Counted from the stretch's first letter, positions 9,861 to 28,835 are shown. The stretch: DNA of 48,993 nt from Victivallis vadensis (GCA_020718525.1 DYRX01000001.1:1-48993), one strand, 5' to 3'. Notes: a model not told the origin generated them from the letters alone. Numbers and translations are program-made.

Positions 9861-9967
9861 ACAGGCTCAGACTATCATTCCAATCCTGTTTTTCAAGGAG
9901 GGAGAAGATCTTTAGGACTGCAAACGACAAGTTGCTCTCTGCGTGTGAAAGCCTCAATCTGCTTTTC

Positions 9968-10978
9968 TCAGAGCTCCTTGAAGATGGCGTTCATTTCCGA
10001 CGCGGCTTCCATGTATGTCTGGAAGCGCTCTTCCGGATTTCTAGCCACCATTCTGTCAATGAGGAGAGTAATTTTTTTATCCACGGTCTTGGGCATGATG
10101 CCTGCGACGCTTGCGACGCGGAGGCTTGCGACATGCTTTTTAGCTAGATTATATGCGTCGGTCGAGCTGTAGTACGGCTTTCCTGAGAGGAGATGGAAAA
10201 GCAGCATTCCGAGGCTGTATATTTCGCTGTTCATTGATTCCGGGAGTCCGACTATCCTTTCTGGCGGCATGTAAATGGGGGATCCTTCGACAGTGTCCGA
10301 AGGGGTGGGCTTGAACGCGGCATCTATGGAGAGACAGAGTCCGTAGTCGAAAAGCTTGGCGTTGCCCTTCGTGTCAATGATGACATTTTGAGGCTTGAGA
10401 TCGCGGAATAAATACCCTGATTCGTAGATTCTCTGTTCGGCGGAGAGAAGCTGAAGCCCCCAAAGCATTGCGTATTTCTGCTGGACACCGCTTTTTTCCT
10501 CGATGATCTGGTCAAGCCTTTTTCCTTCGACAAACTCCATTGCGCAGTAGAATTCGTCATTGTATTGCCCATAGTCGAAGACGGAAATGAGATGCGGATG
10601 TCTGCCGAAGCTTTTTCCGATGGCGGCCTCGTTCAATAGCGCATGTATGAGATGCTGGTCCCGCTTTGCGGTTCTTGCCAGGACTTTGACGGCGAAAAGA
10701 AGACTCGCGTTGGATTCCAGGAACGCTTTGTAGACACTGCCCATTCCGCCGCCGCCAAGAGGCTTGAAAAGCCAGAAGTTTTTGATTTTCATAGGGATAA
10801 AGATGGGGTTCGAGCAGGCGGGGCATTTCTCGATGGTCAGTGGCTGAAGAGGCTCTATCGGAATTCTGCTTCCGCAGTTTTCGCATTCGACGCAGTTGTC
10901 TGCAAGCGCGACGGGGTCAAGACCTGTCTCGCGACGCTCTTCTGCCTCTTTTTCCCTTTTTTTAAATAACCCAAGCAT
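9968..10978 (-). CDS. Ser/Thr protein kinase with N-terminal zinc-ribbon
   Basis: CVECENC...CPAC zinc-ribbon. Kinase motifs are the G-loop GGGGMGSVYKA, AVKVL lysine, catalytic loop FRDLKPQN, DYG and PIYMPPE. Confidence 0.8.
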   Translation of the reverse strand: MLGLFKKREKEAEERRETGLDPVALADNCVECENCGSRIPIEPLQPLTIEKCPACSNPIFIPMKIKNFWLFKPLGGGGMGSVYKAFLESNASLLFAVKVLARTAKRDQHLIHALLNEAAIGKSFGRHPHLISVFDYGQYNDEFYCAMEFVEGKRLDQIIEEKSGVQQKYAMLWGLQLLSAEQRIYESGYLFRDLKPQNVIIDTKGNAKLFDYGLCLSIDAAFKPTPSDTVEGSPIYMPPERIVGLPESMNSEIYSLGMLLFHLLSGKPYYSSTDAYNLAKKHVASLRVASVAGIMPKTVDKKITLLIDRMVARNPEERFQTYMEAASEMNAIFKEL

Positions 10979-10981
10979 TTC

Positions 10982-12616
10982 TCAGGGTTCCTCCGCTTTG
11001 ATCATTGCCGCCTCTTCCTTTTCAATTTCCGCCGCCTCTTTGCTGGCGTTTCCTAGCGCGCTTATCTCCATTTCCAGGCTTTTAGACATTTCTGGCGGAA
11101 AATTCTCCACGCAGGCCTTCGCCATCTGACTGCGTATCATGGCGAAGCCCGGCATGCCGGTGCGCTTCCAGCTGTCGCCCCGGTCTTTTTTGTAGATTCT
11201 ATATATCTTCGCCGCCAGATTCATGTGCGCGAGCGCGGCGTCCTTCTCGCCGTAGGCAAGAAAGTAGAGGGATCTGTAGATCATTGAGCTGACGAGGCCC
11301 GTGGCCTGCCTTGGCGTCGAGGAGGCTACATCCTCCTTCCACTGCTTTTCTACGAAGACGTCAATAGGCTCCAGGAGGGATGCGTCTTCCGGGAATTCCT
11401 CCCTCATTTCTTCCAGGAGCTTTTCGGACTTTCCGTAGCTTCCGAAGCTATAGAGCAGAACGATCGCGTCAATCATGAAATTTTTCATTGCCGCATTTCT
11501 GAAGGACTGGGACTTGTGCATCGCGAAGGCTTCGCGGAAGGTCTTTATGACGGAATCTGTGAGCTTGAGGTTGGGGACGGTCATTATGCCCATGTAGTCG
11601 TTCTTGTCGAGCATCAGCAGTCTTCCTCCGATGAACGCGTCCTTCAGGGACTGGGTTATCATGCGGTCGTTGCTGATTTCGCGCTCGTTCAGCTTGGATT
11701 TTTCAAGCCCCAGGGTTGCCCAATAGATCGCGTGCGCCTCTGGAAGCCTCCAGTCGAACGCCCCGTATCTCTGGTTGATTTCGTGCATTTTTACGGCATC
11801 GAGCTTGTAGACTTCCTTGAGCCATTTTTTTCTCATAAACCATTCCAGATCAGAGGCTTGCACTTTGTCCTTCATCTTTTCAGAAACTGCGGAAGGCATT
11901 TTCCCCTCTTTTCTGAACTCCTTTTCCAGGACTGCGAAATTCGCAAATCCGGCGGCGGAGATCGCCGTCCAGAGAGGGCTGTCTGCGGGATATTGCAGTT
12001 CGAAAAGCTCGATACTGTCGGGAGCCGCGAGAATTTTCTCCCAGTCGGGCTCGTTTCCGCCGAAGACCTTCATGTAGTCTATCGCCATCTGCTGTTTGTA
12101 GTAGAGGTTGGCGTCGTCCATTATGTTTCCGATCTTGTGCTGGTAGATCCAGCCGAGCTCCTTGTAGAGGACAGGATCGGAGGGGTTGTAGACTATCGCC
12201 TCGTCCCGTATGAGCTCGAGTCCTTTCTTCACCCATCTCCATCGGTCTTCGGGCGCGCTGAAGACGACAGAGATGTTGTATGCCATGTTCCAGGCGAGAT
12301 ATGCCGTCGCGCCAGTGAATCTGGGCTGGAGCTTTGTTAGCCAGGATGCGAGCTGGACCATTTCAAAATACTGCCCCTTCTCCTGGAGCATCGCCGCCCT
12401 CAGCCATAGGACGTCGGCGACAAGTCCTCTGAAACTGCCAAGCGCTACGGTCGTGAAGGCGACTATCGGCGGCGCATTTTTCACGATGTCGGTGTCGGTC
12501 AGAGAATTGTCCTTCTTGATCTGGTTGAGCTTTCCCTGGACTAGATTTATAGACGCGACGAAGAGGCAGAAAGCTGCAAAGATTCCGAGCGCCTTCAGTA
12601 TTCTCATGCTTCTCAT
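10982..12616 (-). CDS. membrane-anchored, mostly alpha-helical protein of unknown function (544 aa)
   Basis: Long ORF with an N-terminal TM/signal anchor (ILKALGIFAAFCLFVASINLV). ATGA overlap with the upstream permease; 3-nt gap to the kinase. I recognise no family motif. Confidence 0.6.
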   Translation of the reverse strand: MRSMRILKALGIFAAFCLFVASINLVQGKLNQIKKDNSLTDTDIVKNAPPIVAFTTVALGSFRGLVADVLWLRAAMLQEKGQYFEMVQLASWLTKLQPRFTGATAYLAWNMAYNISVVFSAPEDRWRWVKKGLELIRDEAIVYNPSDPVLYKELGWIYQHKIGNIMDDANLYYKQQMAIDYMKVFGGNEPDWEKILAAPDSIELFELQYPADSPLWTAISAAGFANFAVLEKEFRKEGKMPSAVSEKMKDKVQASDLEWFMRKKWLKEVYKLDAVKMHEINQRYGAFDWRLPEAHAIYWATLGLEKSKLNEREISNDRMITQSLKDAFIGGRLLMLDKNDYMGIMTVPNLKLTDSVIKTFREAFAMHKSQSFRNAAMKNFMIDAIVLLYSFGSYGKSEKLLEEMREEFPEDASLLEPIDVFVEKQWKEDVASSTPRQATGLVSSMIYRSLYFLAYGEKDAALAHMNLAAKIYRIYKKDRGDSWKRTGMPGFAMIRSQMAKACVENFPPEMSKSLEMEISALGNASKEAAEIEKEEAAMIKAEEP

Positions 12617-14103
12617 TTTCGGATCACGGCTCCCAGTTCGCGTTTCGAGTACAGCCAGACGAAAAAGACAAATAGGGGAAGCCCCCTGAGGATGAAATAC
12701 TTGAAGAAGGCGACGGCAATCGCGGAATTCTCGATGAGTTCCCCGTCGGAAAGCTTGTCTGAGACGTCGAGGCGCTGGACAGGAACGGCGACCGTCACGA
12801 TGAAGCGGCTGACTTTTTTCCCGACGTAGTCGTGCACCGCCTCGAGGCTTGAGAGATCCAGCTTCTCCTCCATGCCATCGTTGTACATTTCGTCAATCGA
12901 GATCATGTAGTCGGAGAAGACGCCGAAGAGGATGTAGGCGACGCAGATGAAGACGGCGCATGGCATTGAGAATACGCCGCCAAGCGAGCAGGCGAGGGCG
13001 CCCACGAAGAGGAGCTTTATCGAAAGCATTAGTATCGCGCGCAGGAAATTTCCCAGGAAGCTGTCTTTTCTGACTAGCAGTTTTGGTCCGTCTGAGAGCT
13101 GGAAATAGACGGGCTTCTGCCCGAGGTCGTAGTTCGCATACGCTATTGCGACTTTTCCGTCGTCGCCGATGACTTGCGGAGGAATTGGGAACTCGTTGAA
13201 GGCGCCGCCGGCGAAGCGCTCGGGCTCAGGCATGTAAGGAATGAAAACGTATTCGGGTTTTGAGTCGGCAAGATCCGGAGCTTCCTTGCGCATGTCTTCC
13301 ATCATTTTCTCGTTTGTCTTGATCCTGAAAAACCATATTCCGTAGGTTTCTCTCTGTTCTTTCTGTGAAATCTGATCAACGTATGGTCTGAATCTCAGGA
13401 AAACAGGGCGGTCGAGGACTTTCGACACATTTTCATATTCCCAGATTCTTGAGGCGCTGGGACCGAATCTTACTTCGCCAAGCTTTGCCAGAGTCTGCTT
13501 TCTTAGCTGTGCGTCTATGAAAGGCTGAGACTTCATCGGATCGGTAGGATTTGAGGACGGATTGAGGCCGAGCTCCTTCAGCTCTGCGAGGCGCCTTTCA
13601 TACTCCCTTTTGATTTCCGCCTCGACATCTGGCAATTCCGGCATATAGACCCTGCGGCCGACAAATATTTCATGTCTGATCCGTTCCTTGTCCTCCGGAG
13701 AGAATGCTGTGCTGTTGAATTCGTAAAGTATTCTCGCATATGCAATTACACCGCATACCACCAGTAAAAAAAAATGGAGCAGGAAGACTCCAAGGAATTT
13801 CCCGATCCAGATGGAGGTCCTCGAGAGCGGCTTTGTCGAGAGCATGTGCATCTGGTAGTTTTCAATGTCAGAGGAGCAGACAAAGCAGGAGACCCACACA
13901 GTGGAGATTGTAAGAATCATGGTGAGCGCAGTGATGCAGTACTGGATTGAGAGCCTTATGTGTCCGATCGGTGTCCCGTCGTCAAGCACAGTGCCTGGAA
14001 GAACAAGTACGGCGAGCGCCAGCATGAGGAAAAGCATTAGGAAAATCTTTGATCTGAGTGCCATTCTGACAGTGAGCTTGCCTACTGCGAAAAGCGGCAT
14101 CAT
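12613..14103 (-). CDS. ABC-2-like membrane permease with a large (about 230 aa) extracytoplasmic insert
   Basis: 496 aa with about three N-terminal and three C-terminal TM helices flanking a soluble insert. ATGA overlaps with the ABC ATPase upstream and the 544-aa gene downstream. The N-terminus (FAVGKLTVRMALRSKIFLMLFL) is typical of ABC-2 permeases. Confidence 0.6.
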   Translation of the reverse strand: MMPLFAVGKLTVRMALRSKIFLMLFLMLALAVLVLPGTVLDDGTPIGHIRLSIQYCITALTMILTISTVWVSCFVCSSDIENYQMHMLSTKPLSRTSIWIGKFLGVFLLHFFLLVVCGVIAYARILYEFNSTAFSPEDKERIRHEIFVGRRVYMPELPDVEAEIKREYERRLAELKELGLNPSSNPTDPMKSQPFIDAQLRKQTLAKLGEVRFGPSASRIWEYENVSKVLDRPVFLRFRPYVDQISQKEQRETYGIWFFRIKTNEKMMEDMRKEAPDLADSKPEYVFIPYMPEPERFAGGAFNEFPIPPQVIGDDGKVAIAYANYDLGQKPVYFQLSDGPKLLVRKDSFLGNFLRAILMLSIKLLFVGALACSLGGVFSMPCAVFICVAYILFGVFSDYMISIDEMYNDGMEEKLDLSSLEAVHDYVGKKVSRFIVTVAVPVQRLDVSDKLSDGELIENSAIAVAFFKYFILRGLPLFVFFVWLYSKRELGAVIRK

Positions 14104-15266
14104 CGCTTGTCCTCGTTCAATAACTGCGAAATTCGCGAATTTGCGGCGGAGAGATCTTCGGACTCCGGAGATGGAGCCGGAGCATCTTCGCCAAGCCTCT
14201 TGCTGTCGGTTATCTCGCGGATTTTTTTGTCAGCCATCTCTTTTTCGAGAGATTCGGACTTGTCTTTCGCGTCCGTATCTTCGCCTGGAGGCGGTAGTTT
14301 TGAGCTGAGCGCCTCGATAAGCATGTTTCCATCTTTTTTGAGATATTCGGCAATTTCTCCACCGCCCTCCGCGCCATAGGTGCCGGTTTTTTCTTCGCGC
14401 GCCTTTCTGACGACTTCCAGAAAATATTCCTCGAGAGTGCGTCTCGGGTGGTCCACGCTGACAGGGATGCCACCCATGGACTGTGAGATTTCACCGACGA
14501 TTCTGTCTCTGAGGCCGGGTTCGAGCAGTGGTGTCACAATTCTGCTCATTTCCGAGACTGTGAGCAGTTCATCGAGGGTTCCGGACCCTCTTATCTTCCC
14601 TCCGTAAAGTATTATGACTCTGTCGCAGAGATCCTGGACGTCAGCGAGCAGATGACTGCTGATTACGACAGTTTTCCCGCGCGACTTGAGAAATTTGATC
14701 AGATCTTTTATTTCTCTGCATCCGATGGGATCGAGACCGGAAGTGGGTTCGTCGAGGATGAGGAGTTCCGGATCGTTTATCATCGCCTGGGCGAGACCGA
14801 TTCTTCTTGACATGCCTTTTGAAAATTCCCCGAGCCTTCTGTTTCTTGCGTGTGCGAGTCCCACCATGTCTAGGAGCTGTTCTGCGCGCTTCTTCCGTTC
14901 TGCGTGCGGCAGTCCGAATACGGATCCAAAAAAGTCCAGCGTCTCGAAGGCGGTGAGATAGCGGTAGAGATATGACTCTTCAGGCAGATAGCCGATGGCG
15001 GCCTTGGTCTTGACATCGCGCGGAGACTTGCCAAATATGCTCACGGAGCCTCTTGTCGGATAAAGAAGGCCGAGCAGGATCTTGAGAGTTGTTGATTTTC
15101 CCGAGCCGTTGGGACCAAGGAGTCCGAAGACTTCGCCCTCATTTACTTCGAAGTCAATTTCGTTGACGGCCTTGGCTTTCGGCCGGTGCCAGAAGTCGCG
15201 GAACTCCTTGACAAGAGCGACAGCCTTCACAACTGTTTTCTGCGCATCAGCCTTCTTGTCGCTCAT
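14100..15266 (-). CDS. ABC transporter ATP-binding protein with acidic C-terminal extension
   Basis: Walker A GPNGSGKST, signature-like FSKGMSRR, Walker B LLILDEPTSGLD and H-loop ISSHLL. A low-complexity tail of about 130 aa follows. Confidence 0.9.
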   Translation of the reverse strand: MSDKKADAQKTVVKAVALVKEFRDFWHRPKAKAVNEIDFEVNEGEVFGLLGPNGSGKSTTLKILLGLLYPTRGSVSIFGKSPRDVKTKAAIGYLPEESYLYRYLTAFETLDFFGSVFGLPHAERKKRAEQLLDMVGLAHARNRRLGEFSKGMSRRIGLAQAMINDPELLILDEPTSGLDPIGCREIKDLIKFLKSRGKTVVISSHLLADVQDLCDRVIILYGGKIRGSGTLDELLTVSEMSRIVTPLLEPGLRDRIVGEISQSMGGIPVSVDHPRRTLEEYFLEVVRKAREEKTGTYGAEGGGEIAEYLKKDGNMLIEALSSKLPPPGEDTDAKDKSESLEKEMADKKIREITDSKRLGEDAPAPSPESEDLSAANSRISQLLNEDKR

Positions 15267-15868
15267 TTTGAATCTGCGCTCCTTTTAAGTGTTCCGTCGC
15301 GCTTGTAGTATTTTGTTCCTGGCAAGAGTTTTCCGGCGGAATATGTTTTTTCAAACATGGTGGCTTCATTGTCATAGAATTCGATGAAGGCGCCATCAAG
15401 CTCTCCAGCATCGTTGAAGGAGTAGGAGAATTTCTTTTTGCCGTTCTCGTGCCATTCGGTGAACTGTCCGGTCTTTTTTCCGTCCTTAAGAGCTCCCTCG
15501 AGAGCCTTCTGCCCTTTCTTGAACCAGGAGGACAAGGGACCATCGAGTTTTCCGTCCTTGTAGTTGCACTCGACGAGCTTGGAGCCGTCCTTGTAGAACT
15601 CGCGGTATTGTCCGTGTTTGATTTCGGGCTTGAGCCTATAGACAGTGTATTCGGCTTTCAGCTCTTTTCCAGGCTCCGGATAAAAATCCTGTCTTTGTAT
15701 GAATTCGGGGAGGCTTTCCTCCTGTTTTTTTTCGACTTTCGGGCTTTGCGCCTGAAGAATGGGAGGAGGCTTCGGCTTTCCGCTGAAAAGCAGAAAATAA
15801 AGGGCGAGAGCGAGCACAATCAGGAAGACTGCGATTCCAATTATGATCTTTTTATTATTGTCGTCCAT
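15263..15868 (-). CDS. membrane-anchored MORN-variant repeat protein (YwqK-like)
   Basis: N-terminal TM (IIIGIAVFLIVLALALYFLLF). Repeated YKDGKLDGP / KDGKKTGQFTEWHENGKKK / GELDGAFIEFY units follow. Confidence 0.7.
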   Translation of the reverse strand: MDDNNKKIIIGIAVFLIVLALALYFLLFSGKPKPPPILQAQSPKVEKKQEESLPEFIQRQDFYPEPGKELKAEYTVYRLKPEIKHGQYREFYKDGSKLVECNYKDGKLDGPLSSWFKKGQKALEGALKDGKKTGQFTEWHENGKKKFSYSFNDAGELDGAFIEFYDNEATMFEKTYSAGKLLPGTKYYKRDGTLKRSADSK

Positions 15869-15871
15869 TTT

Positions 15872-17461
15872 TCATTCCCCGATATTTAGCTTTTGCCAAC
15901 GGGCTTCGGAAGATGCACCCTTGAGAGTGAGCTTGTATGGAGAACCGAGCGGATTTGCCATTTTCGCCCTGTTTGGATACGATACAGCGCCCGAGCTGTC
16001 TCTTGACGCCGAATTCCACTTTTTCATCAGATCCGTGGATTTTCCGTCAGGAAAAAAGCATGACTGCGGGATGACGGATCTTGACACCGAGGGGCTGGCC
16101 CATTCGAGTTTGCAGAGGGTGAAATGCAGAACCTCGGCAAGGGCGACTTTGATGTCATATTTCTCTCCAGCCTTAAGCTTGACATTGGTCTTTTCGTATT
16201 CTGTTGGCGGCTGTTCCTTCCACCCGTCAATTATAAGATTGCCATTTAGCCAGAGGCGGATGCCGTCGTCGCCTTTGAGATAGAATGTGTATGTATCGGT
16301 CTTTTGAGGAACAAGAGTGCCTGTCCAAATGACTGTCATCAGATTTTCGGGTGTGTTCTCGTGGGGTTTTTCGGTTCGCCAGTCGAAATCAATCTGCGGA
16401 TCAACTCTTGTGAAAGTTGCGCCTTTGGCGGTCATTGTGCTGAAATAGGATGCGTAGAGGCCGCCAAGCCAGTCTCCGCTGTTGCCGGTGTCGCTGTCAT
16501 TGAAATAGGGATGGAACGCCCTGGCCTTTATTGTTGACGCTTTTTCGAGCTTGATCGGAGCGCTGTAGAGCTCGGAGTTTTCATTTGGCTCAGATCCGTC
16601 GCAGGAAAAGCGTATCTCGGAGTCTTCAGTCGCACAGGAGACTGTGATTTCCATTCCGGGCTCGAATTTGACGCCGTCGGGTTCGAAGCTTGGCGTGGCG
16701 CATTTTGGTCTTAAGAATCGCTCGTTGATGCGGTCAAGTCGTTTTTTCTCGGCGGCGGCGATCTTCGCCAGTTCAGCTTCGAGCTCTTTCTTCTGCCATA
16801 TTTGTCCGTTGTGCACAGCCAGATCCTGCCGTGATCGTATGGATTTTTCAAGGAGTCCATTCATTGCATCCTGTCCTTCGGCCTGGAGGGGGAGGGCGGC
16901 GGAATATGTTTTCCTGATTTCTTCGAGGCATGTTTTTTTCAGTTCGGGGTCGCCTATTTTCTGCACCCAGAATGAAATGAGCTTTTCATTGATCGCCGGA
17001 TATTTTGTGTGAATTTCTTCTTTGAGCTCCTTCATGAAACGAAGCTTCTCGTCGTTGTACTTGTTCTTTTCTATTCTTATAATCTGCTTCCTGCGCTCCT
17101 CGTTTTTTTTCGGATCGAGATGGTCGAAGAACGCCGGATCAACGTCAACGACCGGCACGCCTGTCGTCCCGACTCTTATTGTGCGCGAGTCGTGTCCGAG
17201 AAGTTTGCCTTTCGCTATTTTTCCTCTGTAAACTACGGATATCTCCTGTCCTTTTTCGTAGAGGGGACATTCGGTTTCGGATTTTTTCTTCGCTGCATCC
17301 TCGTCAAACGGAGGGTACGTGTCGAGTTTTTGCCTGTAGACGGCTTCTCCCTCGGGAGCGAGGTCGGAGAGCTTCTGTCCAATCAGCCCAAGGGGGAGCG
17401 AAATGGCGGCGAGCGCAAGAACGAGGCGGATTCGTGAAGAGCGTAGGAAAAAAGAACCCAT
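15872..17461 (-). CDS. secreted PA14-domain protein with Fn3-associated (chitobiase C-terminal-like) module
   Basis: Signal peptide present. EITVSCATEDSEIRFSCDGSEPNENSELYSAPIKL is the Fn3-associated motif. PA14 signature: GLYASYF..DFDW..VIWTGTLVPQKTDTYTFYLKGDDGIRLWLNGNLIIDGW. An AGGAGG SD sits in the 11-nt gap upstream. Confidence 0.75.
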   Translation of the reverse strand: MGSFFLRSSRIRLVLALAAISLPLGLIGQKLSDLAPEGEAVYRQKLDTYPPFDEDAAKKKSETECPLYEKGQEISVVYRGKIAKGKLLGHDSRTIRVGTTGVPVVDVDPAFFDHLDPKKNEERRKQIIRIEKNKYNDEKLRFMKELKEEIHTKYPAINEKLISFWVQKIGDPELKKTCLEEIRKTYSAALPLQAEGQDAMNGLLEKSIRSRQDLAVHNGQIWQKKELEAELAKIAAAEKKRLDRINERFLRPKCATPSFEPDGVKFEPGMEITVSCATEDSEIRFSCDGSEPNENSELYSAPIKLEKASTIKARAFHPYFNDSDTGNSGDWLGGLYASYFSTMTAKGATFTRVDPQIDFDWRTEKPHENTPENLMTVIWTGTLVPQKTDTYTFYLKGDDGIRLWLNGNLIIDGWKEQPPTEYEKTNVKLKAGEKYDIKVALAEVLHFTLCKLEWASPSVSRSVIPQSCFFPDGKSTDLMKKWNSASRDSSGAVSYPNRAKMANPLGSPYKLTLKGASSEARWQKLNIGE

Positions 17462-17472
17462 TGTCCCTCCTG

Positions 17473-19404
17473 CTATGCGTTTTCGTTGAAGGTGAGTTCC
17501 TCGCCGGTGCGGACAAGTCTTGCGCTGTTGAAAATGATTATGATGGTGCTTGCCGTGTGGAGAATTGCGGCGGCGATCGGCGGCATCCAGCCGAATACGG
17601 AAAGGCTTATTCCGCCTATGATGAACAGGAAGCCCAGAAAAATGTTCTGGGCGATGATTGCGCTTGACTTGCGCGCAAGAACAATCAGCATGGGGACTCT
17701 ACGCAAGTCGTTTGTCATCAATGCTATAGAGGCGCTGTCAATGGCAATGTCGCTTCCTATCGCACCCATTGCAATTCCAAGGTCGCCCGCTGTAAGCGCA
17801 GGGGCGTCGTTCACTCCATCGCCCACCACTGCGACATGTGAGATTTTCTTCATTTCCTTTACGTACCTGACCTTGTCGTCTGGGAGACACTGGGATCTGA
17901 AGTCACCGATGCCGAGGCTTCTCGCCACGATTTCCGCGACTGAATTTCTGTCTCCAGTGACCATGGAGCAGTTTTTGACGCCTATGTCGAAGAGTCCGCG
18001 TATTGCGTCGTGAGCCTCTTTGCGGACCGTGTCCTTAAAACCGATCCAGCCGATGTTTCGTCCGCCTTTGGAGACATGCACAACGCTCATGACGACATCC
18101 TCGACATCTGTTCCGGGACCTGAGATTGGCGAAGACGATTCGTGAAATTTTTCAACCCACTCCTTTCGACCGATTCTGCAGAGTTCGCCTTTGTAGTCTG
18201 CGCTGACGCCTTTTCCGTGTTCTTCTGCGAAATCGGCGACATCGTCAATTTTGAGACCAGCCTCGGCGGCAAGCTGCTGAAGGGCCTTTGCGGTCGGGTG
18301 ATTGCTGTGCTGTTCGACTGAAGCCGCGATTTTCAGCAGTTCGGCGGGCTGGATGCCTTCGGCTGGTTCAAGTCTGGCGACGGAAAGCTTACCCTCAGTC
18401 AAAGTTCCGGTCTTGTCGAATATCACGGTTCTGATTTTTGCCGCCATTTCGAGATATGAGACGTCTTTTATGAGAATTCCTAGTCTGGCGGCGGCGGCGA
18501 GAGACGCGACGATTGCCGAAGGAGATGCCAGAACAAGCGCACAGGGGCAGGATATGACCAGAATGGCGATCACATTCTCCATTTTTCCCATGAAAAGCCA
18601 GGTGAGTCCGGCGATCATGAGAATCGTCGGCGTATAGAATCCGGCGTATTTGTCTATAAGGCGAATGATGGGGGGGCGACTGCTCTCGGCCGCGAGAATC
18701 AGATCCTGGATTTTGCCAAGTGTCGTGTCGCGTCCAGCCTTGGTGACCTCGATCTCAATGGCGCCTGTCATGTTTTGAGTGCCTGCAAAGACGTCATTTC
18801 CGCATTCCTTTTCTACAGGGAGAGATTCGCCCGTGATTGATGCCTGATTGACTGTGCTGTTGCCTTTTCTGACGACACCGTCAACGGGAAAATTTTCTCC
18901 GGGGCGGATTCGTATGAGATCGCCGACTTTGAGGCTTGCGACATCCGTTTCTATCTCCTGCCCGTCCTCGACTTTTCTTGCGACATGCGGCATGAGCCTG
19001 ATAATTTTCTCGATTGATTTCTGTGCGCCGCTGGCAGTTTTAGTCTCGATGATCACCGAGAGGAGGAGGAAGAAGGAGATGATTCCGGCAGTTCTGAAGT
19101 CGCCTCCTGCCATTGCGGCAAGAACGGCAAGGGAAACCAGCTCGTTCATGTGGATGAGGCCTTTTGCCAGGTCGAAGACTGCAACTTTGAAAAGGGGGAA
19201 CGCCATTATTAGCGCCCCTGCCATGGCGCTGAGATCGGCGGCAAGCGTCTGATCCGGCTGGAGCCAGTTCAGCAAATAGGAGTTGACAATGAAAAACGCT
19301 CCTACGAGAGCGGTACCAAGACGCCCCAGGCTTCTCGGATGCCCGGGATCTTCGGAATCATGGTCGTGCGAATGGCCGCAAAGGCAGACTTTCTTGTCTG
19401 ACAT
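17473..19404 (-). CDS. heavy-metal translocating P1B-type ATPase (Zn/Cd/Co-type), no HMA domain, His-rich N-terminus
   Basis: Motifs: TGES, CPC (ISCPCALVLASP), DKTGTLT and GDGVNDAPAL. The N-terminus reads CLCGHSHDHDSEDPGHP. Confidence 0.9.
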   Translation of the reverse strand: MSDKKVCLCGHSHDHDSEDPGHPRSLGRLGTALVGAFFIVNSYLLNWLQPDQTLAADLSAMAGALIMAFPLFKVAVFDLAKGLIHMNELVSLAVLAAMAGGDFRTAGIISFFLLLSVIIETKTASGAQKSIEKIIRLMPHVARKVEDGQEIETDVASLKVGDLIRIRPGENFPVDGVVRKGNSTVNQASITGESLPVEKECGNDVFAGTQNMTGAIEIEVTKAGRDTTLGKIQDLILAAESSRPPIIRLIDKYAGFYTPTILMIAGLTWLFMGKMENVIAILVISCPCALVLASPSAIVASLAAAARLGILIKDVSYLEMAAKIRTVIFDKTGTLTEGKLSVARLEPAEGIQPAELLKIAASVEQHSNHPTAKALQQLAAEAGLKIDDVADFAEEHGKGVSADYKGELCRIGRKEWVEKFHESSSPISGPGTDVEDVVMSVVHVSKGGRNIGWIGFKDTVRKEAHDAIRGLFDIGVKNCSMVTGDRNSVAEIVARSLGIGDFRSQCLPDDKVRYVKEMKKISHVAVVGDGVNDAPALTAGDLGIAMGAIGSDIAIDSASIALMTNDLRRVPMLIVLARKSSAIIAQNIFLGFLFIIGGISLSVFGWMPPIAAAILHTASTIIIIFNSARLVRTGEELTFNENA

Positions 19405-20558
19405 CAGTTCTCTCCCGCTTTCTTTTCGGCGCCGTCTTTTTTGTAGTCGGGTTCCGGACTCAGCATTATTCTCAGCTCCTGGGTTTCATTTGAGTGCACA
19501 TCGGGAACGATGTATTTGTCTTTTACATCCCGGAGCAGGGAAACCAAGGTCTCGGAGTAGAGCGGTATGATTACAGACTCGGGATTTTTCCTGTATTCGA
19601 CGAGGATTTTTTCGAAGTACTTGGACTCCGACTCGATTTCGGAGACTGTCCTGCTTCTATAAACTTCGGCATCAACGATTATTTCGCGGCTTTCGGTTTC
19701 CGATTCCTGAGCGGATTTGAAGGAGTAGTTGATAGCCTTCAGCTTTGCGCTGGAGCTCTCCTGCTCGGCGTTGATCACGTCATGGAAGGCGGAAACTGTG
19801 CTGAATGGAGGAGTCTTCGATTTGAGGACGGCGGAACTGAGCTCGACTCCCGCATTTAATGCCTGGAATGCGGAGGCGATTCTGCGGCTCACGTCCTCTT
19901 GGTAGCCTGTCACATCCTTGTAGAGCGTGTTCTCCACTTTTTGAACCGCTGTCGCCTTGATGATTTCATTCTCGACAATAGAAGCCAGGGTCGTCCGCGG
20001 TCCGCGCGTTCCTGCAGATCTTCCGTCGTCCCTCAAGACAGGCTCGTCCTCGGAGCGTGGATCCTGGGGGCAGAACAGCTTGCTGTAGTATGCGAGAGGA
20101 TCTTTCACTTCATAGACTATTTCCCATTCGGTGTGGACGATGTTTGCATCGCCAGTGAGAAGCGAGCCGTCACGTCCGGGCATGATGGGCACCGCCATTT
20201 TGCTGAGGGCATCCTGCTCGTCGGTCATTGAGACATCTGGATTGGGCCAGAAATTTTTTATCTGCATGACCTGCCTGCTGGTTGGGATTCTTACAATTCT
20301 GCTGACGGGATACGGGAAAGCCCAGTGCCAGTCTTCGGTGAAGACTTCGCTTATTTTTCCGAATCTGAGAAGGATCACAGCCTCCTGCGGGTCGACAGTG
20401 AAATATCCGAGGAAGGTGAAATACCAGGCGACAGTCCCCATGACGAAGAGCGTGAGCAGGGCGACGACGTATCGAAAGGATCTTGCCAGCGCGTTCAGGC
20501 CGGAGCCGATTCCGCTCTCCCTTTCCAAGGACTCTTTTTCGTTGTTTTCCAAAATCAT
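19404..20558 (-). CDS. SPFH/band-7 protein, HflK-like
   Basis: 384 aa with a single N-terminal TM and an SPFH core (VDPQEAVILLRFGKISEVF..). Its stop TGA (19406-19404) shares one nt with the ATPase ATG. Confidence 0.7.
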   Translation of the reverse strand: MILENNEKESLERESGIGSGLNALARSFRYVVALLTLFVMGTVAWYFTFLGYFTVDPQEAVILLRFGKISEVFTEDWHWAFPYPVSRIVRIPTSRQVMQIKNFWPNPDVSMTDEQDALSKMAVPIMPGRDGSLLTGDANIVHTEWEIVYEVKDPLAYYSKLFCPQDPRSEDEPVLRDDGRSAGTRGPRTTLASIVENEIIKATAVQKVENTLYKDVTGYQEDVSRRIASAFQALNAGVELSSAVLKSKTPPFSTVSAFHDVINAEQESSSAKLKAINYSFKSAQESETESREIIVDAEVYRSRTVSEIESESKYFEKILVEYRKNPESVIIPLYSETLVSLLRDVKDKYIVPDVHSNETQELRIMLSPEPDYKKDGAEKKAGEN

Positions 20559-20592
20559 TTTCTCTCTTTCCGCTGTGACGGAGGAATTTTAG

Positions 20593-21570
20593 CTACTTTG
20601 ATGTTCCCGGCGCATCGTCATTCTTGAGCGGTGCCTTCAGCCCCATCGCCGGATCGTCCATGTTCAGGAGATCGAATGGCGGATAGCGCGTATTGAGGAT
20701 GAGTGTCGTTTTCTTGGGCATGATTTTGCGCAGTGAGTCGAGTTTTCTGAGGAAGTCCGCGAGAGCCGGATCCTGCTTGAATACAGAGTAGTAGGAGGCG
20801 GCCTTTGCATCGCCCTCGGCTCGTATGCGCTTTGCCTCAGCTTCCGCGTCGGCAATCTTGAGTTTCTTCTTGTTGTCCGCCTCGTTTATGATCTGCTTGG
20901 AGATGTTTTCGCCCTGCGAACGGTAGTGCTGAGCGACTATAGCCCTCTCCTCCTTCATCCTTTCAAAAACTTTTTCGGAAGTTTTTTCAGGCACTGCAAC
21001 TTGTTTGAATCCTATCTCTTCGACCGCGATGCCGTAGTCCTTCAGCGCGCTGTCCTTCACTCCGGCAAGAATTTCCTTCTCTATCTCGGAGATCTTCATC
21101 TTCTTCGGATCCGTGTTGATGAATTCGTCGAACTTGTACTTGCCAACAATCGCGTTTCTGACGCTTCTGACAAGGGAATTGAGCCTGTCTTCGGCGGAAA
21201 TAAATGTGCCGACATTTTTATAGAGAACGTCCGGTCTTTCGATTTTGTAGAGGCAATATGTGCTGATAATGAGATTTTTGGCATCCGCCGTGTAGGTTTC
21301 TTCGATTTTTCCGCTAGAGCCGGCAAAACAGCGCAGGCGATTGTCGAATTTTATGACCTTCTGTATCGGATAGGGCCATTTGAAATGGAGACCGGCTTCC
21401 TTTATTCCGCTTATTTTACCGAAAGTGGTCAGAACTGCGGTTTCAGTTGAATCCACCTGATAGCAGAATATCGCCGCCAAAAAAATCGTCAGCACCAACA
21501 ATCCCAAAAATAGCGATGGGATATGGCTGACTGCACCAGTTTTTTCAATTTCATGCTTGTGTTCGCTCAT
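20593..21570 (-). CDS. SPFH/band-7 protein, HflC-like
   Basis: 325 aa with an N-terminal TM, an SPFH core (VDSTETAVLTTFGKISGIKEAGLHFKWPYPIQKV) and a coiled-coil tail (ADAEAEAKRIRAEGDAKAA). Confidence 0.8.
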   Translation of the reverse strand: MSEHKHEIEKTGAVSHIPSLFLGLLVLTIFLAAIFCYQVDSTETAVLTTFGKISGIKEAGLHFKWPYPIQKVIKFDNRLRCFAGSSGKIEETYTADAKNLIISTYCLYKIERPDVLYKNVGTFISAEDRLNSLVRSVRNAIVGKYKFDEFINTDPKKMKISEIEKEILAGVKDSALKDYGIAVEEIGFKQVAVPEKTSEKVFERMKEERAIVAQHYRSQGENISKQIINEADNKKKLKIADAEAEAKRIRAEGDAKAASYYSVFKQDPALADFLRKLDSLRKIMPKKTTLILNTRYPPFDLLNMDDPAMGLKAPLKNDDAPGTSK

Positions 21571-21585
21571 ATTTTCGACTCCGTT

Positions 21586-23505
21586 TTATTTTTTCGTGCC
21601 GGAACTTCCGCCAGAGATGTCCACCAAATCCGCCTCCATCAGATCCAGCCGCGCCTTTTCCTCGAAATTAAGGATGAAGACGTTGTGCGGTATGGAACTC
21701 GCTATGACGAGCTTTCTTATCATCTTGCAGTCGTTCTCGAAGAAGTCCAGATAATGTCTGAGTCTGAACATCTGGGGCATGCGCCTGTAGGCATCAAGCT
21801 GTTTGAGGAAACGGGCATTCTCGGCTTCTGCAAGCTTCTCAGCGTTGGTCGCTCCAGTCTTGCTGTCGAGAATGATCCTGGCGACCTCGCTTTCGATCTC
21901 GTTGGCAAGTTTGGACTCGTATTTTTTGGCGGAAAGAATCTTTGTCTCCTTCTCTTCCAGTGCGCCGACGACCTCCTGAAACGACGGGGCGACCTGTTCA
22001 GTTGGCGGATGCGAATCGAGAAAATTCAGGGAAACAATTTCCACGCCCAGCTTCAGCCTGTCGCAAGCGCCTTGGAGAATTCTATGGAGATCTCCGATCA
22101 TCATGCTTCTGTCAAGCGACATCGCCTTTATGATGTCAACCGACGCGAGATACTTGCCAATTTCCTGTTCTGCAAGATCCTTGAGAATCTCAGGGCTGTC
22201 TCTGTGCATGTAGGCGTAGTCAATGAGCCCGCCTTCCTTTATCTTGAACTGGATTGGAAACGCCGCAGCCAAGAATGAGACCGGGGCATCGTCTCCTGAG
22301 ACCTCCTTCGCTGAAGCCACAAGGAAGCGAGGCTCCTTCGCGTAATGCTGTTTTGTCCAGAGAATCACCTCGGGAAGCTCCTTCCTGCCCTTTTCCTCCT
22401 TGAATTCGGGTCCAATGACAATCTCCTGAATTTTACGGACTGGGAATCTTGATATTTTTTCGACAGGCCAAGGCGCTTTGAAATGGATTCCCGGCTGAAG
22501 AAGAGGTGAATCCTGGCGCTTTCCGAAAAATTCCCTGACGCCCACTTCGTCGGTTTTCACTTCGACGATGCTGGTGAAAAGCCAGAGCGCGCCAAGCCAG
22601 ACGAGCAAAATTGGAACAAGAGCCGACTCGGCGAAATTGAAGAGCTCCCTGCGCCCGACGCGGAAGCCGAACTGATACTCGAGCGTGTCAAAAAGCCCCT
22701 TGGCCAGCCCGCCAGGATCCGATGCTATGGAAAGAAGCCTGCTCTCGAAAAACAAAGAATCGTCTCCTGCCCGCTTCGGGCGGTAGAACTCGACAATGAA
22801 GTTCAACAGCAGTTCGGCGGCAAGAATCACATATACGATCAGAAGGAACTTTGCCGTCCTGCCGTCCCAGGCGGTGTAGGCGAACTTGGAGAGAAGAATG
22901 GAGAGAGATACGAGCATTCCCATGCCAAAGACGGCGACGAGCCAGCTTCCGGCCGGACGCAGGGTTCTGAACGATCTGGACTTCGACTGGCCAACAAGAA
23001 AAATTCCTGCGAAGAGCGAAACTATGGAAAGCAGAGCCGATGCGAATGCGCATTGCAGAGCGTTGCGGGGCTCCAGAGGCTTCAGCCTCGCACCCCAATG
23101 CTTCCAAAATAGATAGGAGAGGCCGAGGAGCGCGATGAACTCCGCCAGCGCAATCGCGTAGGGAGAATATTTCTTGTATAGCCTCAATGCCCTCTGAGAA
23201 AGGAAAAGCGCGTCCACGTCCGCGTCAAGCGCCATCTTTTCGCGCCTCTTCTCGATGGCAACCCTCTCCTCCTCCTCCTTGGAGGAATTCTCCTCGAAAT
23301 GTCCAATGATGGCGGAATTGATCAAAAGCAGGAAGGCTACAATAAAGGGGATAGAGAGGGCGGCGAAGGAGTCGAATGCGACTAGTCCCGAACTCCAGGT
23401 GAAAAAGACCAGGCCTGCTGACAGCAGTGAAAGGATGGCGCATACGACCGAAAGCTTCCTGAGCAGTCTAGACTCCTCGCTCCAAATTTGAAGATTTCTG
23501 TCCAT
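21586..23505 (-). CDS. polytopic membrane protein (about 7 TM) with C-terminal SPFH/HflK-like domain
   Basis: 639 aa. Multiple hydrophobic helices occupy the first 315 aa. Then VKTDEVGVREFFGKRQDSPLLQPGIHFKAPWPVEKI, an SPFH core, and a coiled-coil tail. Confidence 0.7.
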   Translation of the reverse strand: MDRNLQIWSEESRLLRKLSVVCAILSLLSAGLVFFTWSSGLVAFDSFAALSIPFIVAFLLLINSAIIGHFEENSSKEEEERVAIEKRREKMALDADVDALFLSQRALRLYKKYSPYAIALAEFIALLGLSYLFWKHWGARLKPLEPRNALQCAFASALLSIVSLFAGIFLVGQSKSRSFRTLRPAGSWLVAVFGMGMLVSLSILLSKFAYTAWDGRTAKFLLIVYVILAAELLLNFIVEFYRPKRAGDDSLFFESRLLSIASDPGGLAKGLFDTLEYQFGFRVGRRELFNFAESALVPILLVWLGALWLFTSIVEVKTDEVGVREFFGKRQDSPLLQPGIHFKAPWPVEKISRFPVRKIQEIVIGPEFKEEKGRKELPEVILWTKQHYAKEPRFLVASAKEVSGDDAPVSFLAAAFPIQFKIKEGGLIDYAYMHRDSPEILKDLAEQEIGKYLASVDIIKAMSLDRSMMIGDLHRILQGACDRLKLGVEIVSLNFLDSHPPTEQVAPSFQEVVGALEEKETKILSAKKYESKLANEIESEVARIILDSKTGATNAEKLAEAENARFLKQLDAYRRMPQMFRLRHYLDFFENDCKMIRKLVIASSIPHNVFILNFEEKARLDLMEADLVDISGGSSGTKK

Positions 23506-23739
23506 AAGCCCCTTATAAGTTCCTGCAACAAAGAGACACGCCCCGCCCGCAAGGACACGGATGCATACAAATTCACACGCCTACGCGCAAATTGCCTCGA
23601 AATATCGCATTGCAACGAAAAAAATCAATAGGAAAACTGAAATACGGCGTTTTATTTTTGAGATGCAGAGGACTTCGACGGACACCTCACTTAATAGAAC
23701 GTCAAACATTTTCCTGCCAGATCGTTTTATTGGCGGGAA

Positions 23740-24672
23740 TCAGACTGCACCTGGCAATGACTGTTTGCATGGGGTGGACCGATCGCCAAGCTCAAACTGT
23801 AGCGTGGCATGGCATATTCCAAAGCGTTCATGGAGTTCGTTGCTGATTTCAGCAAGAAGCGCATCGTCAACGACAGCGTCCGGCTTCACCAGGTGCGCTG
23901 TCAATGCCACTTCAGTCGTGCTTATGGCCCAGATATGCAGATCATGTACCGCACTGACCCCAGGAAGAGCTTCGAGGTAGGCGGCGACTTCAGCAGGCTG
24001 TATATTTTCTGGAACGGCATCAAGCGCAAGCCTGAGCGATTCGCGCAGAAGCCCCCAAGTTCCGAAGCCGATGACAAGAGATATTGCAAGGCTCACTGCG
24101 GGATCCAGGAAAAGCCATCCCGTGAGACTCATTGCAATTGCCGCGATGACGACTCCAAATGAGACTCCCGCATCTGCCGCCATATGCAGATAGGCGCCAC
24201 GGATATTTACGTCCTGCTCTTTGCCCGACATGAACATGTATGCTGTGAACCCGTTGACAAGGATTCCGACGGAGGCAACAACGATGACCGAAGCGCTCGC
24301 GACTGTTTCAGGATGAACAATTCTGAGGATGGATTCCCAGGCGATGCCACCAACGGCAAGGAGCAGGATAACACAATTAGCCAATGCCGCCAAAACAGAA
24401 CTTCGTCGCAGACCATAGGTGTAGCGCAACGTCGGATGCCTTTGAGCCAGGACGCTGGCGCCCCATGCCAGCAGAAGCCCAAAAACATCGCCGAGATTGT
24501 GTCCGGCATCCGCCAAGAGAGAAAGAGAATTGGAAAGTAGGGCAACAATAGCCTCAACTGCAACGAAAGCAACATTGATCCCGACTCCGACAGCAAAGGC
24601 GCGGTTAAAATTTTTGGGAGCATGACTGTGTCCAGATTCCTCTCCATCTGCGTGGGAATGACTGTGCCCCAT
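23740..24672 (-). CDS. cation diffusion facilitator (CDF) metal exporter, CzcD/ZitB-like
   Basis: His-rich N-terminus MGHSHSHADGEESGHSH. TM2 LLADAGHNLGD and TM5 HMAADAG metal-site motifs. The ATG at 24672 is preceded by AAGGAGG; the track ORF extends to 24738. Confidence 0.9.
   Translation of the reverse strand: MGHSHSHADGEESGHSHAPKNFNRAFAVGVGINVAFVAVEAIVALLSNSLSLLADAGHNLGDVFGLLLAWGASVLAQRHPTLRYTYGLRRSSVLAALANCVILLLAVGGIAWESILRIVHPETVASASVIVVASVGILVNGFTAYMFMSGKEQDVNIRGAYLHMAADAGVSFGVVIAAIAMSLTGWLFLDPAVSLAISLVIGFGTWGLLRESLRLALDAVPENIQPAEVAAYLEALPGVSAVHDLHIWAISTTEVALTAHLVKPDAVVDDALLAEISNELHERFGICHATLQFELGDRSTPCKQSLPGAV

Positions 24673-25657: not shown

Positions 25658-28835
<3,178 letters not shown>

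Follow-up and report, generated by a model that had tools for sequence, protein, structure and literature searches.

The stretch of DNA analyzed here (the window) spans 48,993 nt of a Lentisphaerota/Victivallales metagenome-assembled genome (Victivallis vadensis, GCA_020718525.1, DYRX01000001.1:1-48993). It contains an array of ten consecutive minus-strand ORFs at 9968-23505 (g1 to g10), bordered by non-coding stretches of 234 nt upstream (23506-23739) and 107 nt downstream (9861-9967). Several of the genes encode SPFH (stomatin/prohibitin/flotillin/HflK-C) proteins or parts of transporters. Below, module M1 denotes g1-g4 (polytopic SPFH, HflC-like, HflK-like, and P1B ATPase), and module M2 denotes g7-g9 (ABC ATPase, permease, and TPR-like protein). 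The features, in the direction of reading, are as follows.

Upstream non-coding region, 23506-23739, minus strand: likely the promoter/leader of the unit, by inference, with a hairpin and T-run inside
g1, 21586..23505, minus strand: 639 aa, about seven TM helices at the N-terminus fused to an SPFH domain of HflK-like type (residues 315-528); the conserved unit begins with this gene
g2, 20593..21570, minus strand: 325-aa HflC-like SPFH protein with one N-terminal TM helix
g3, 19404..20558, minus strand: 384-aa HflK-like SPFH protein with one N-terminal TM helix
g4, 17473..19404, minus strand: 643-aa P1B-type metal ATPase with a His/Cys-rich N-terminal tail and no HMA domain
g5, 15872..17461, minus strand: secreted protein of 529 aa with a PA14 domain and a signal peptide; lineage-specific insertion, outside the conserved unit
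g6, 15263..15868, minus strand: membrane-anchored protein of 201 aa with MORN repeats, the partner of g5; lineage-specific insertion
g7, 14100..15266, minus strand: 388-aa ABC ATPase (DrrA/GldA/LptB-like) with a charged tail of ~140 residues
g8, 12613..14103, minus strand: 496-aa permease in which a periplasmic beta-sandwich (about residues 148-348) separates two sets of three TM helices
g9, 10982..12616, minus strand: 544 aa, N-terminal anchor plus TPR-like alpha-solenoid, with conserved motifs AWNMAYN and ELGWIYQHK
g10, 9968..10978, minus strand: 336-aa cytoplasmic Ser/Thr kinase with an N-terminal CxxC...CxxC zinc ribbon and FRD and DYG motifs

The successive gaps from g1 to g10 are 15, 34, -1, 11, 3, -4, -4, -4, and 3 nt; the g3 stop and the pump ATG overlap by 1 nt, and the 11-nt ATPase/PA14 gap (g4/g5) reads CAGGAGGGACA, which includes AGGAGG. 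Thus, our ORF list and junction script reproduced the tight ten-gene minus-strand array of the original prediction, with its gaps and its AGGAGG. Both non-coding flanks were confirmed as well, and the labels previously given to the ten genes agree with our domain calls. The array is embedded in a ~35-kb stretch of minus-strand genes, so co-directionality alone is little evidence. The median junction is 3 nt within the array versus ~66 nt at the other same-strand junctions in the window, and the ten genes, which share a strand, are separated by junctions too short for independent promoter/terminator pairs.

Consensus and hairpin scans found no terminator-like hairpin at any array junction. Inside coding sequence, the consensus scan gave weak terminator-like matches. 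Promoter-like matches in coding sequence are weak and no commoner than in shuffles (13 found versus 10.2 ± 3.9 expected), with the proviso that these promoter and terminator scans detect consensus matches only and promoters inside coding sequence could escape them. Ahead of g1, the hairpin and T-run lie at 23559-23537, 31 nt before the ATG. In relatives, the array always begins at g1 or at an extra permease gene, preceded by an AT-rich non-coding region and, further upstream, by unrelated genes. A search for a shared motif upstream of g1 in 36 loci returned enriched A-runs only and no Zur/Fur-like palindrome, and Rfam found no riboswitch or other RNA family in the whole window, hence no known metal riboswitch in the g1 leader. 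We consider it likely that all ten genes are here read from one promoter upstream of g1; we extend co-transcription to all ten because the inserted pair g5-g6 has operon-like junctions (AGGAGG in the 11-nt gap before it, 3 nt between its two genes, and an overlap with g7 that reads ATGA). The CDF gene upstream and the beta-helix gene downstream were also considered as members of the unit and rejected, as neither was found beside the array in any relative.

The first three proteins all scored above the cut-off for Pfam Band_7 (5.7e-11 for g1, 6.3e-24 for g2, and 7.1e-15 for g3), each with the domain behind an N-terminal membrane anchor, the arrangement of HflK/HflC-type proteins. The TM segments of g1 were assigned from a hydropathy scan, and the periplasmic topology of the SPFH proteins is taken from homology and this crude scan. 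Orthologues of g1 head the array in relatives. Separately, the closest g1 homologue (61% identity, locus L121) lies alone beside a hexapeptide transferase, maybe through rearrangement or in a chimeric contig, and it was excluded from our conclusions.

The fourth protein carries DKTGT, TGES, and GDGVNDAP and exceeds the cut-offs of TIGR01525 (548 bits, cut-off 346) and TIGR01512 (461 bits), which identifies it as a P1B-type heavy-metal ATPase. Its transport helix contains CPC, which an alignment of 40 sequences shows to be kept in most g4 orthologues, and its last helix contains LHTAST. The Zn/Cd P1B signature comprises K and DxG. Matches to either the Cu (YN, MxxSS) or the Zn/Cd subgroup were not found in g4, whose last helices read NIFLGFLFIIGG and LHTAST, and g4 is without the Cu residues seen in the CopA alignment. 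Its role as a metal efflux pump, as originally suggested, is uncertain because g4 belongs with an HmtA-like group that is reported in the literature as an importer.

Module M1 is not confined to this array. It occurs twice more in this genome (contigs C19 and C206), and each of the three P1B ATPases detected across the assembly lies next to an SPFH trio. Colinear homologous cassettes were found on a Klebsiella aerogenes plasmid, on a Paraburkholderia megaplasmid, where M1 sits beside a zinc ABC importer, and on a Kluyvera chromosome; the four-gene order with tight junctions is present in the window and at each of these places. In tblastn against the Klebsiella cassette, g1-g4 matched colinearly (E 6e-20, 6e-32, 2e-10, and 7e-112). 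Identities to the two plasmid cassettes (Klebsiella and Paraburkholderia) are 20-24%, 27-29%, 23%, and 35-36% for g1 to g4, the g3 match in the Paraburkholderia record falling on its first SPFH gene, and g1 aligns with the long "HflK" of the Klebsiella cassette at about 24% identity over 380 residues. The pumps of these two cassettes also have the CPC and LHN(M/V)(S/G)T pattern, so that CPC plus LHxx(S/G)T is a signature common to them and g4. By gene order and homology, M1 is a four-gene cassette of ancient origin whose range extends from Proteobacteria to the PVC (Planctomycetota-Verrucomicrobiota-Chlamydiota) group. A profile search started from distant g1 homologues recovered the PVC proteins of the first search and no others, and a search with the Klebsiella long HflK returned only Enterobacterales among the best 120.

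A similar locus is known from Pseudomonas aeruginosa. The cluster PA2434-PA2439 contains three HflK/C-family genes (PA2439-PA2437) and hmtA (PA2435); PA2439, the first gene, is annotated as HflK family, PA2438 as HflC, and PA2437 as HflC family (PMC4542158, PMC8531726). Zinc depletion raises the expression of these genes 5.6-14-fold, and the PA2439 promoter is bound by Zur (PMC4542158, PMC8531726). HmtA has been reported as an importer, a claim that a later review describes as unconfirmed (PMC10393844). The hmtA locus is thus like M1 in joining three SPFH-family genes to a P1B ATPase, a likeness drawn from published annotation rather than from a comparison of PAO1 sequences. It differs in that it also includes PA2436 and has no reported ABC-2 module or kinase, both of which are fused to the cassette here. 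P. aeruginosa has also been described as carrying a three-SPFH operon, PaFlo5-PaFlo6-PaFlo7 (PA14_33070/33080/33110), that resembles g1-g3. These genes may correspond to PA2437-PA2439. The operon is patchily distributed across classes, and its triple deletion slightly reduced biofilm formation and attenuated virulence in wax moths under conditions not aimed at metals; the report makes no mention of an adjacent ATPase or hmtA (PMC13086221).

The second half of the array encodes an ABC system and a kinase. The ATPase g7 matched ABC_tran (6.4e-34) as well as the drrA, GldA, and lptB models, all three below their cut-offs. Matches of g8 to ABC2_membrane_3/4 are weak and below cut-offs, and a PDB profile search gave a marginal match to NosY only. 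In a fold search with the AlphaFold model of g8 (pLDDT 85), the TM part resembled NosY (probability 1.0, E 0.02-0.04), LptG matched weakly (E 0.09-0.10, TM-score 0.24-0.27), and CBM-like matches were also returned, all with E > 0.01. The likeness of the g8 model to NosY, LptG, and CBM folds is one of resemblance, not membership. LptF/G proteins consist of three TM helices, a periplasmic beta domain, and three TM helices, a layout that g8 recalls. ABC systems of the NosDFY(L) and LptB2FG types handle periplasm-facing cargo rather than importing solutes. The present system differs from both in having the TPR-like g9 instead of a NosD, NosL, or LptC partner and in the periplasmic domain of g8, whose appearance is that of a CBM-type sandwich. 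Outside the array, on contig C355, this genome encodes perm2, which is probably a second membrane subunit. For g9, there is no Pfam family match at 1e-3; the model is all-helical (pLDDT 83), and PDB profile and fold searches found generic TPR solenoids only (TM-score at most 0.2). It nonetheless has at least 571 relatives in species-representative genomes.

The kinase g10 matched Pkinase (3.6e-43). Its orthologues follow g9 in the nearest relative with available DNA (L122) and in genome G001, or lie divergently upstream of g1 in genomes in which the array is split, where a second kinase paralogue type is convergent after g9. In all, g10 orthologues adjoin the array in four different arrangements. 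The linkage is limited to the window's family and a few others, with varying position, and most arrays outside the family have flanks without a kinase. The kinase and the ABC ATPase match PADLOC models (PD-T4-6, mad3, and mad6), as expected if the array were an anti-phage defense or stress-signalling island built around them. These matches are confined to generic kinase and ABC domains, however, and the other eight of the ten proteins have none; effector domains, such as those of nucleases or methylases, are absent, and conservation is vertical and order-wide, unlike that of defense islands. We dropped this reading, which we regard as scarcely credible.

To what extent the array is kept together can be seen in relatives. 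The seven-gene order g1-g2-g3-g4-g7-g8-g9 is present in 12/12 fetched order-level relatives and, with tight spacing, in 30 of the 31 sampled genomes of two other Victivallales families (f3 and f6). An unbiased phylum-level sample yielded 48 genomes with g1, all of which also have g9; the two lie on the same strand, 5.7-7.1 kb apart, in 34 and are non-adjacent in 14, some of which may reflect contig breaks. Anchoring on g9 instead, 38 of 56 loci with enough flank have the full seven-gene order, with median gaps of 37, 15, 2, 18, 3, and -4 nt, the 18 nt being the pump/ABC gap. Relative L122 adds the kinase (g1-g2-g3-g4-g7-g8-g9-g10) and has a pump/ABC gap of 5 nt. The claimed linkage of the SPFH/ATPase block to the ABC block is thus borne out, in both the phylum-level genomes and the two other families.

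The gene order is conserved for seven genes, or eight in the nearest relatives, and not for PA14 and MORN. None of the other loci examined has the pair at the pump/ABC junction. The PA14 protein (PA14, 3.4e-25; CHB_HEX_C_1; Fn3_assoc) has orthologues of 36-43% identity in relatives, but these are located elsewhere, and their sole linked partner is the MORN gene (MORN_2, 8.7e-08), which comes after the PA14 gene in 8 of 12 loci. There, the two form a stand-alone pair flanked by opposite-strand genes. Judged by these arrangements, PA14 and MORN form a two-gene unit of their own, which has been inserted at the M1/M2 seam in this genome alone, and the array is very probably a widely conserved unit of eight genes interrupted by this pair.

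The original prediction had suggested that all ten genes may be functionally linked, with surface protein export among their activities; in its fullest form, they would be one system whose ABC transporter exports or anchors the PA14 protein. In its favor, the junctions around PA14/MORN described above are operon-like. Against it, the pair is missing from every other array examined and stands alone elsewhere, and the PA14 protein, which carries a signal peptide of its own, does not need an exporter dedicated to it. Membership of the pair in the unit is not upheld, nor does surface protein export by the ABC system find support; we judge the ten-gene system highly improbable. The ten-gene block should not be annotated as one system, PA14/MORN being a passenger.

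Within the conserved unit, the pump/ABC junction is, on comparative gene order, a seam. M1 and M2 are unlinked in two genera of the window's family, with the break exactly at this junction, and in G001 two opposite-strand genes interrupt it. Unlinked halves in relatives had been named beforehand as evidence against a single array; they do occur in these two genera, but the halves are linked in most sampled genomes. One could argue that M1 is a cassette for metal homeostasis complete in itself, that M2 is an ABC exporter unrelated to it, and that the two are neighbors in PVC bacteria through inherited synteny with no functional coupling. This would fit the occurrence of M1 alone in Proteobacteria and twice more in this genome, the M2-like modules that occur alone (contig C25 and 12 of the 56 g9-anchored loci), the exact splits, and a seam that tolerates both the opposite-strand insertion and PA14/MORN. 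It fits less well with M1/M2 adjacency at gaps of ≤74 nt across at least three classes and with the constant presence of g9 alongside g1 (48/48). The split genomes, moreover, retain both halves, and in the genus labelled g5 (a label distinct from gene g5) each half keeps a related kinase. In more distant lineages, M1 is bracketed by ABC parts, since the gene of a second ABC-2-type permease precedes g1: Lentisphaera araneosa HTCC2155 and two Verrucomicrobiota MAGs have perm2-g1-g2-g3-g4-g7-g8-g9, and a Kiritimatiellia contig has perm2-g1-g2-g3-g4. Altogether, we consider two unrelated systems rather unlikely.

The best explanation, which we hold to be somewhat better than an even prospect, is a conserved eight-gene unit plus insertion in which the SPFH trio would serve the transporters. 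Published cryo-EM work shows that HflK/C assembles around a membrane client into a large structure shaped like a cage or a nautilus (PMC12048511). The three SPFH proteins would form an HflK/HflC-like, periplasm-facing ring in the inner membrane, whose clients would be the HmtA-like Zn/Cu-type pump and the ABC-2 system, not FtsH. The ring would confine or gate metal handling at the envelope, which the Ser/Thr kinase g10 would tune. We put forward this cage-around-transporters mechanism tentatively, as a minority prospect. Its most specific form, a kinase-controlled cage enclosing the HmtA-like pump, an extractor-type ABC-2 machine, and the periplasmic TPR partner as an envelope compartment for metal delivery or sequestration, is more doubtful still. 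We counted in favor of the best explanation as a whole that the nearest solved relative of g2 is HflC of the HflK/C-FtsH cage, and against it that M1 occurs without M2 in Proteobacteria and that the two are separable.

The same homology could instead mean that the trio is an ordinary HflK/HflC-type FtsH modulator, with the neighboring transporters as FtsH substrates or bystanders. Among solved structures, g2 is closest to HflC and HflK of the FtsH complex (first is E. coli HflC, 7vhp_G, with E 4e-18), and g2 passes the HflC equivalog cut-off, by 0.3 bits (TIGR01932, 134.7 versus 134.4). In contrast, g1 and g3 are far below the HflK cut-off (TIGR01933, 86.8 and 98.5 bits versus 159.4), and ftsH was found neither in or beside the array here nor at any relative's locus or cassette inspected. 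Compared with E. coli HflK/HflC-FtsH (PDB 7vhp, 7wi3, 9cz1, 9cz2), g2, g3, and the C-terminal half of g1 are HflC/HflK-like SPFH proteins with N-terminal anchors, but the present set comprises three SPFH genes rather than two, and its conserved neighbors are a P-type pump and an ABC transporter. One of the three, g1, has a polytopic domain of ~300 residues for which the 419-residue E. coli HflK has no room. We find an FtsH modulator very unlikely, and calling these SPFH genes "protease modulator HflK/HflC" probably misleads.

The role of bacterial SPFH assemblies beyond FtsH modulation is an open question, and this unit may show SPFH scaffolds serving transporters rather than the FtsH protease. 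The genetic tie of the trio to a P-type metal pump from Proteobacteria to PVC bacteria, and in the latter also to an ABC-2 machine, supplies concrete candidate clients; if they are true clients, they would be a second class for bacterial SPFH cages besides the FtsH protease. The unit also gives context to the long-unexplained claim of metal import by HmtA and to the role of its co-induced HflK/C-like neighbors. Literature searches found no paper describing the fused PVC SPFH/P-type ATPase/ABC operon. Culturable carriers or hosts include Lentisphaera araneosa HTCC2155, Kluyvera, and laboratory strains of P. aeruginosa.

Ten successive open reading frames occupy positions 9968 to 23505 on the minus strand of the window, separated by 15, 34, -1, 11, 3, -4, -4, -4, and 3 nt. 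The ORF list and junction script thus reproduce the array that had been described by eye, including the pump/PA14 gap (CAGGAGGGACA) and its AGGAGG. We number the genes in the direction of transcription, with g1 at the 23505 end:

9968-23505, minus strand, ten-gene array, comprising
g1, fusion of a ~7-TM domain and an HflK-like SPFH domain
g2, HflC-like
g3, HflK-like
g4, P1B ATPase (CPC motif, His/Cys-rich tail)
g5, PA14 protein, secreted
g6, MORN protein, anchored
g7, ABC ATPase carrying a charged tail
g8, permease
g9, protein outside any Pfam family
g10, Ser/Thr kinase with a zinc ribbon

Below, M1 denotes the SPFH trio plus pump (g1-g4) and M2 the ABC ATPase, permease, and TPR-like protein (g7-g9). 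The array is flanked by non-coding stretches of 234 nt and 107 nt and is packed more tightly than its surroundings, as the remaining same-strand junctions of the window have a median of ~66 nt. Co-directionality is weak evidence on its own because the array lies within a ~35-kb run of minus-strand genes. Consensus and ViennaRNA hairpin scans found no terminators in the array junctions, as in the initial reading, and only weak sites within genes; promoter-like sites in the array were in no excess over shuffles in the consensus scan.

To place the array among its relatives, loci were fetched by anchoring on g9 and on g1. The order g1-g2-g3-g4-g7-g8-g9, with operon-like gaps, recurs in all 12 order-level relatives. 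A g9 profile run against species-representative genomes detected at least 571 relatives, from which 80 loci were kept, 56 of them informative (sufficient upstream DNA). The full seven-gene order is present at 38 of these 56 loci, while five carry g2-g9 only, one is rearranged, and 12 have the ABC module only. Median junctions from g1 to g9 in the relatives are 37, 15, 2, 18, 3, and -4 nt, and the pump-to-ABC gap is at most 74 nt in every fully parsed locus (27/27). In a phylum-level sample of 120 genomes, drawn evenly and tallied by hand, g9 occurs in 72 and g1 in 48, and all 48 g1 genomes also have g9; the two genes lie on the same strand, 5.7-7.1 kb apart, in 34 of the 48. Linkage of scaffold, pump, and ABC genes is therefore real and old. 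The non-coding region upstream of g1 in relatives is AT-rich with -10-like boxes.

The two halves are nevertheless separable. Two genera of the window's own family have the array broken precisely at the seam between pump and ABC genes (g4/g7), with the halves on different contigs or at distant sites. Unlinked halves, which the original prediction named as evidence against a single unit, thus occur within the family. In two other families of the order (f3 and f6), 30 of 31 g1 genomes keep g1 and g9 on one strand, 5.7-7.1 kb apart. Seeming splits in two further relatives (G023 and G036) are contig breaks inside g4. M1 and M2 can live apart, but we read them as one splittable system rather than two systems that merely met, since ABC parts bracket M1 in deeper-branching lineages. 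Outside Victivallales, Lentisphaera araneosa HTCC2155 (ABCK01000041, near LNTAR_02999) and two Verrucomicrobiota MAGs have the order perm2-g1-g2-g3-g4-g7-g8-g9, and a Kiritimatiellia contig has perm2-g1-g2-g3-g4. Here, perm2 is an ABC-2-like membrane protein of ~320-370 residues that is related to the N-terminal part of g8 and lacks the periplasmic domain.

The closest relative with DNA, metagenome contig L122 (57-78% protein identity), reads g1-g2-g3-g4-g7-g8-g9-g10 with gaps of 39, 68, -1, 5, 2, -4, and 2 nt, and has neither PA14 nor MORN. The window is thus an eight-gene unit with a two-gene insertion at the pump/ABC junction. When the PA14 gene was used as the anchor in 40 relatives, full-length orthologues (36-43% identity) were present, and the sole accompanying gene was MORN. 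In one genus, opposite-strand genes bound the pair on both sides, which makes it a free-standing two-gene unit. The PA14/MORN genes are passengers, and their proposed membership in a linked system is not supported, given that the pair stands alone elsewhere and is absent from the L122 array. The inserted pair has operon-like junctions, so all ten genes are probably co-transcribed from upstream of g1 in this genome, judging from sequence. Another relative (locus L021, G001:C15, 8388-10353) has two opposite-strand genes in the same junction; by eye, their products (276 and 384 aa) suggest a sugar-phosphate-isomerase-type TIM barrel and a Gfo/Idh/MocA-type oxidoreductase, respectively. The pump/ABC junction is an insertion hot spot and a recurrent break point.

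Reciprocal searches separated two orthologous zinc-ribbon kinase types, both with GGGGMG, [FY]RD, and D[YF]G. The g10 type lies 3' of g9 in the window, L122, and G001, and divergently upstream of g1 in split genomes of the genus labeled g5 (a taxon, not the gene) and in two other families. The second type is on contig C256 of the window's genome and is convergent, 3' of g9, in split genomes of that genus. Beyond the window's family, most arrays lack any kinase gene within 10 kb. Taken together, these positions indicate that the kinase association is real but lineage-restricted: the predicted Ser/Thr kinase linkage stands for the window's family and a few others but not for most arrays beyond it.

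The window corresponds to contig C333 in a 4.35-Mb MAG (592 contigs, 91% complete), in which M1 is present twice more and M2 has a paralogue:

C19, 2215-8049, M1 copy in the order g1'-g2'-g3'-g4', as in the window
C206, 564-6881, M1 copy with the pump first
C25, 528-5805, M2' (ABC ATPase, permease, g9-like protein)
C355, 4726-5682, unlinked perm2 homologue of 318 aa, adjoining PAS/histidine-kinase (sensor kinase) genes

All three P1B ATPases detected in the assembly by tblastn adjoin an SPFH trio. On C25, a perm2 paralogue (a 324-aa ABC-2-like membrane protein) lies 3' of g9', and the C355 homologue is a candidate for the second membrane subunit that the window's ABC system is missing. The C19 pump has CPM in place of CPC and no His-rich tail. 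The second Cys of CPC is also lost at loci L080, L082, L083, and L089 (CPV) and L110 and L115 (CPG), and the pumps without it, C19 included, are also without the His/Cys-rich N-terminal tail. These CPV, CPG, and CPM branches have kept their SPFH neighbors but may differ in metal specificity or have lost it.

In a crude scan, seven hydrophobic segments come after a positive N-terminus in g1; with this topology its SPFH domain would lie in the periplasm, as in HflK. Among solved structures, g2 is closest to HflC from the E. coli HflK/C-FtsH assembly. The g8 model (pLDDT 85) has three TM helices, a beta-sandwich of ~200 residues, and three further TM helices. Its TM part resembles NosY (fold match, probability 1.0, E 0.02), and the beta-sandwich has fold matches to carbohydrate-binding modules; the overall layout is like that of LptF/G, but fold matches to these are weak. 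The g9 model (pLDDT 83) begins with an N-terminal helix and continues as an alpha-solenoid; its only matches are generic TPR ones.

M1 also has counterparts in Proteobacteria. A plasmid tblastn with g1 found cassettes annotated as HflK (long), HflC, HflK/SPFH, and cation-translocating P-type ATPase on a conjugative plasmid of Klebsiella aerogenes and on the Paraburkholderia sprentiae megaplasmid pl1WSM5005 (locus L150). Their proteins are colinear homologues of g1-g4. The cassette pumps combine CPC with a last-helix LHN(M/V)(S/G)T motif (CPC and LHTAST in g4), and the Klebsiella pump has a His-rich N-terminus too. At least 1717 proteins belong to the long-HflK family (E ≤1e-20), and the best-scoring among the matches listed are all from Enterobacterales; in the Kluyvera sichuanensis chromosome, these four genes recur with overlaps of 4 nt. 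At L150, 1-6667, the cassette lies just downstream of genes for a GTP-binding protein, a zinc ABC importer (substrate-binding protein, ATPase, and two permeases), and a PCu(A)C copper chaperone, a metal-starvation-type neighborhood.

By published annotation, M1 resembles the hmtA locus of Pseudomonas aeruginosa (three HflK/HflC-family genes plus HmtA). PA2439 (HflK family), PA2438 (HflC), PA2437 (HflC family), and PA2435 (HmtA) are up 5.6-14-fold in a zinc-starved znuA mutant (PMC4542158), and the promoter of PA2439, named as the first gene of the hmtA locus, is shifted by Zur (PMC8531726). The importer role of HmtA is based on overexpression and has been called unconfirmed (PMC10393844). The SPFH proteins of P. 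aeruginosa were the subject of a 2026 study, in which a three-gene operon is described with the pump unmentioned; its triple mutant formed only slightly less biofilm and was attenuated in wax-moth virulence (PMC13086221). Published work covers the four-gene core solely as an annotated locus that responds to zinc, and the fused PVC operon (M1 plus M2) appears not to have been described.

Alongside the observed anatomy of the array and its conservation, we propose a mechanism in which the SPFH trio would form an HflK/C-like ring in the inner membrane, with the HmtA-like pump and the ABC-2 machine as clients rather than FtsH. None of the inspected loci has an ftsH gene in its vicinity. From the His/Cys tail and from P. 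aeruginosa data, the metal may be Zn/Cu-like, and the kinase could modulate the system in some lineages. The linkage first proposed for all ten genes is thus retained for scaffold, pump, and ABC genes, narrowed to certain lineages for the kinase, and dropped for PA14/MORN.

Several loci differ in their surroundings. The closest g1 homologue found (61% identity; L121, GCA_020719615.1, DYPZ01000013.1, 8105-10027) is followed by a hexapeptide-repeat transferase and an opposite-strand gene instead of g2-g4, either a rearrangement or a chimeric contig. At locus L124 (4333-4908), from a close relative whose g1 is 60% identical, the gene for an HTH_17-domain response regulator stops 1 nt short of the g1 start; its product may be a regulator of the unit specific to that lineage. 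The gene directly upstream of the window's array, on its strand, encodes a CDF-family cation efflux protein whose N-terminus is His-rich (23740-24738, minus strand). It was found beside the array in no relative, so the CDF/pump adjacency is specific to the window's genome. In the 234-nt leader, 31 nt upstream of the g1 start codon, a GC-rich hairpin is followed by TCTCTTTGTT (23537-23559, minus strand); it could be the terminator of the CDF gene or a regulatory leader. It matched no Rfam family, nor did Rfam match elsewhere in the window. Of all 50-nt hairpins in the window, the most stable by a wide margin (-34.9 kcal/mol) is a near-perfect palindrome at 48896-48945 (minus strand); the initial sequence reading had noted it together with a second copy near 25658-25713.
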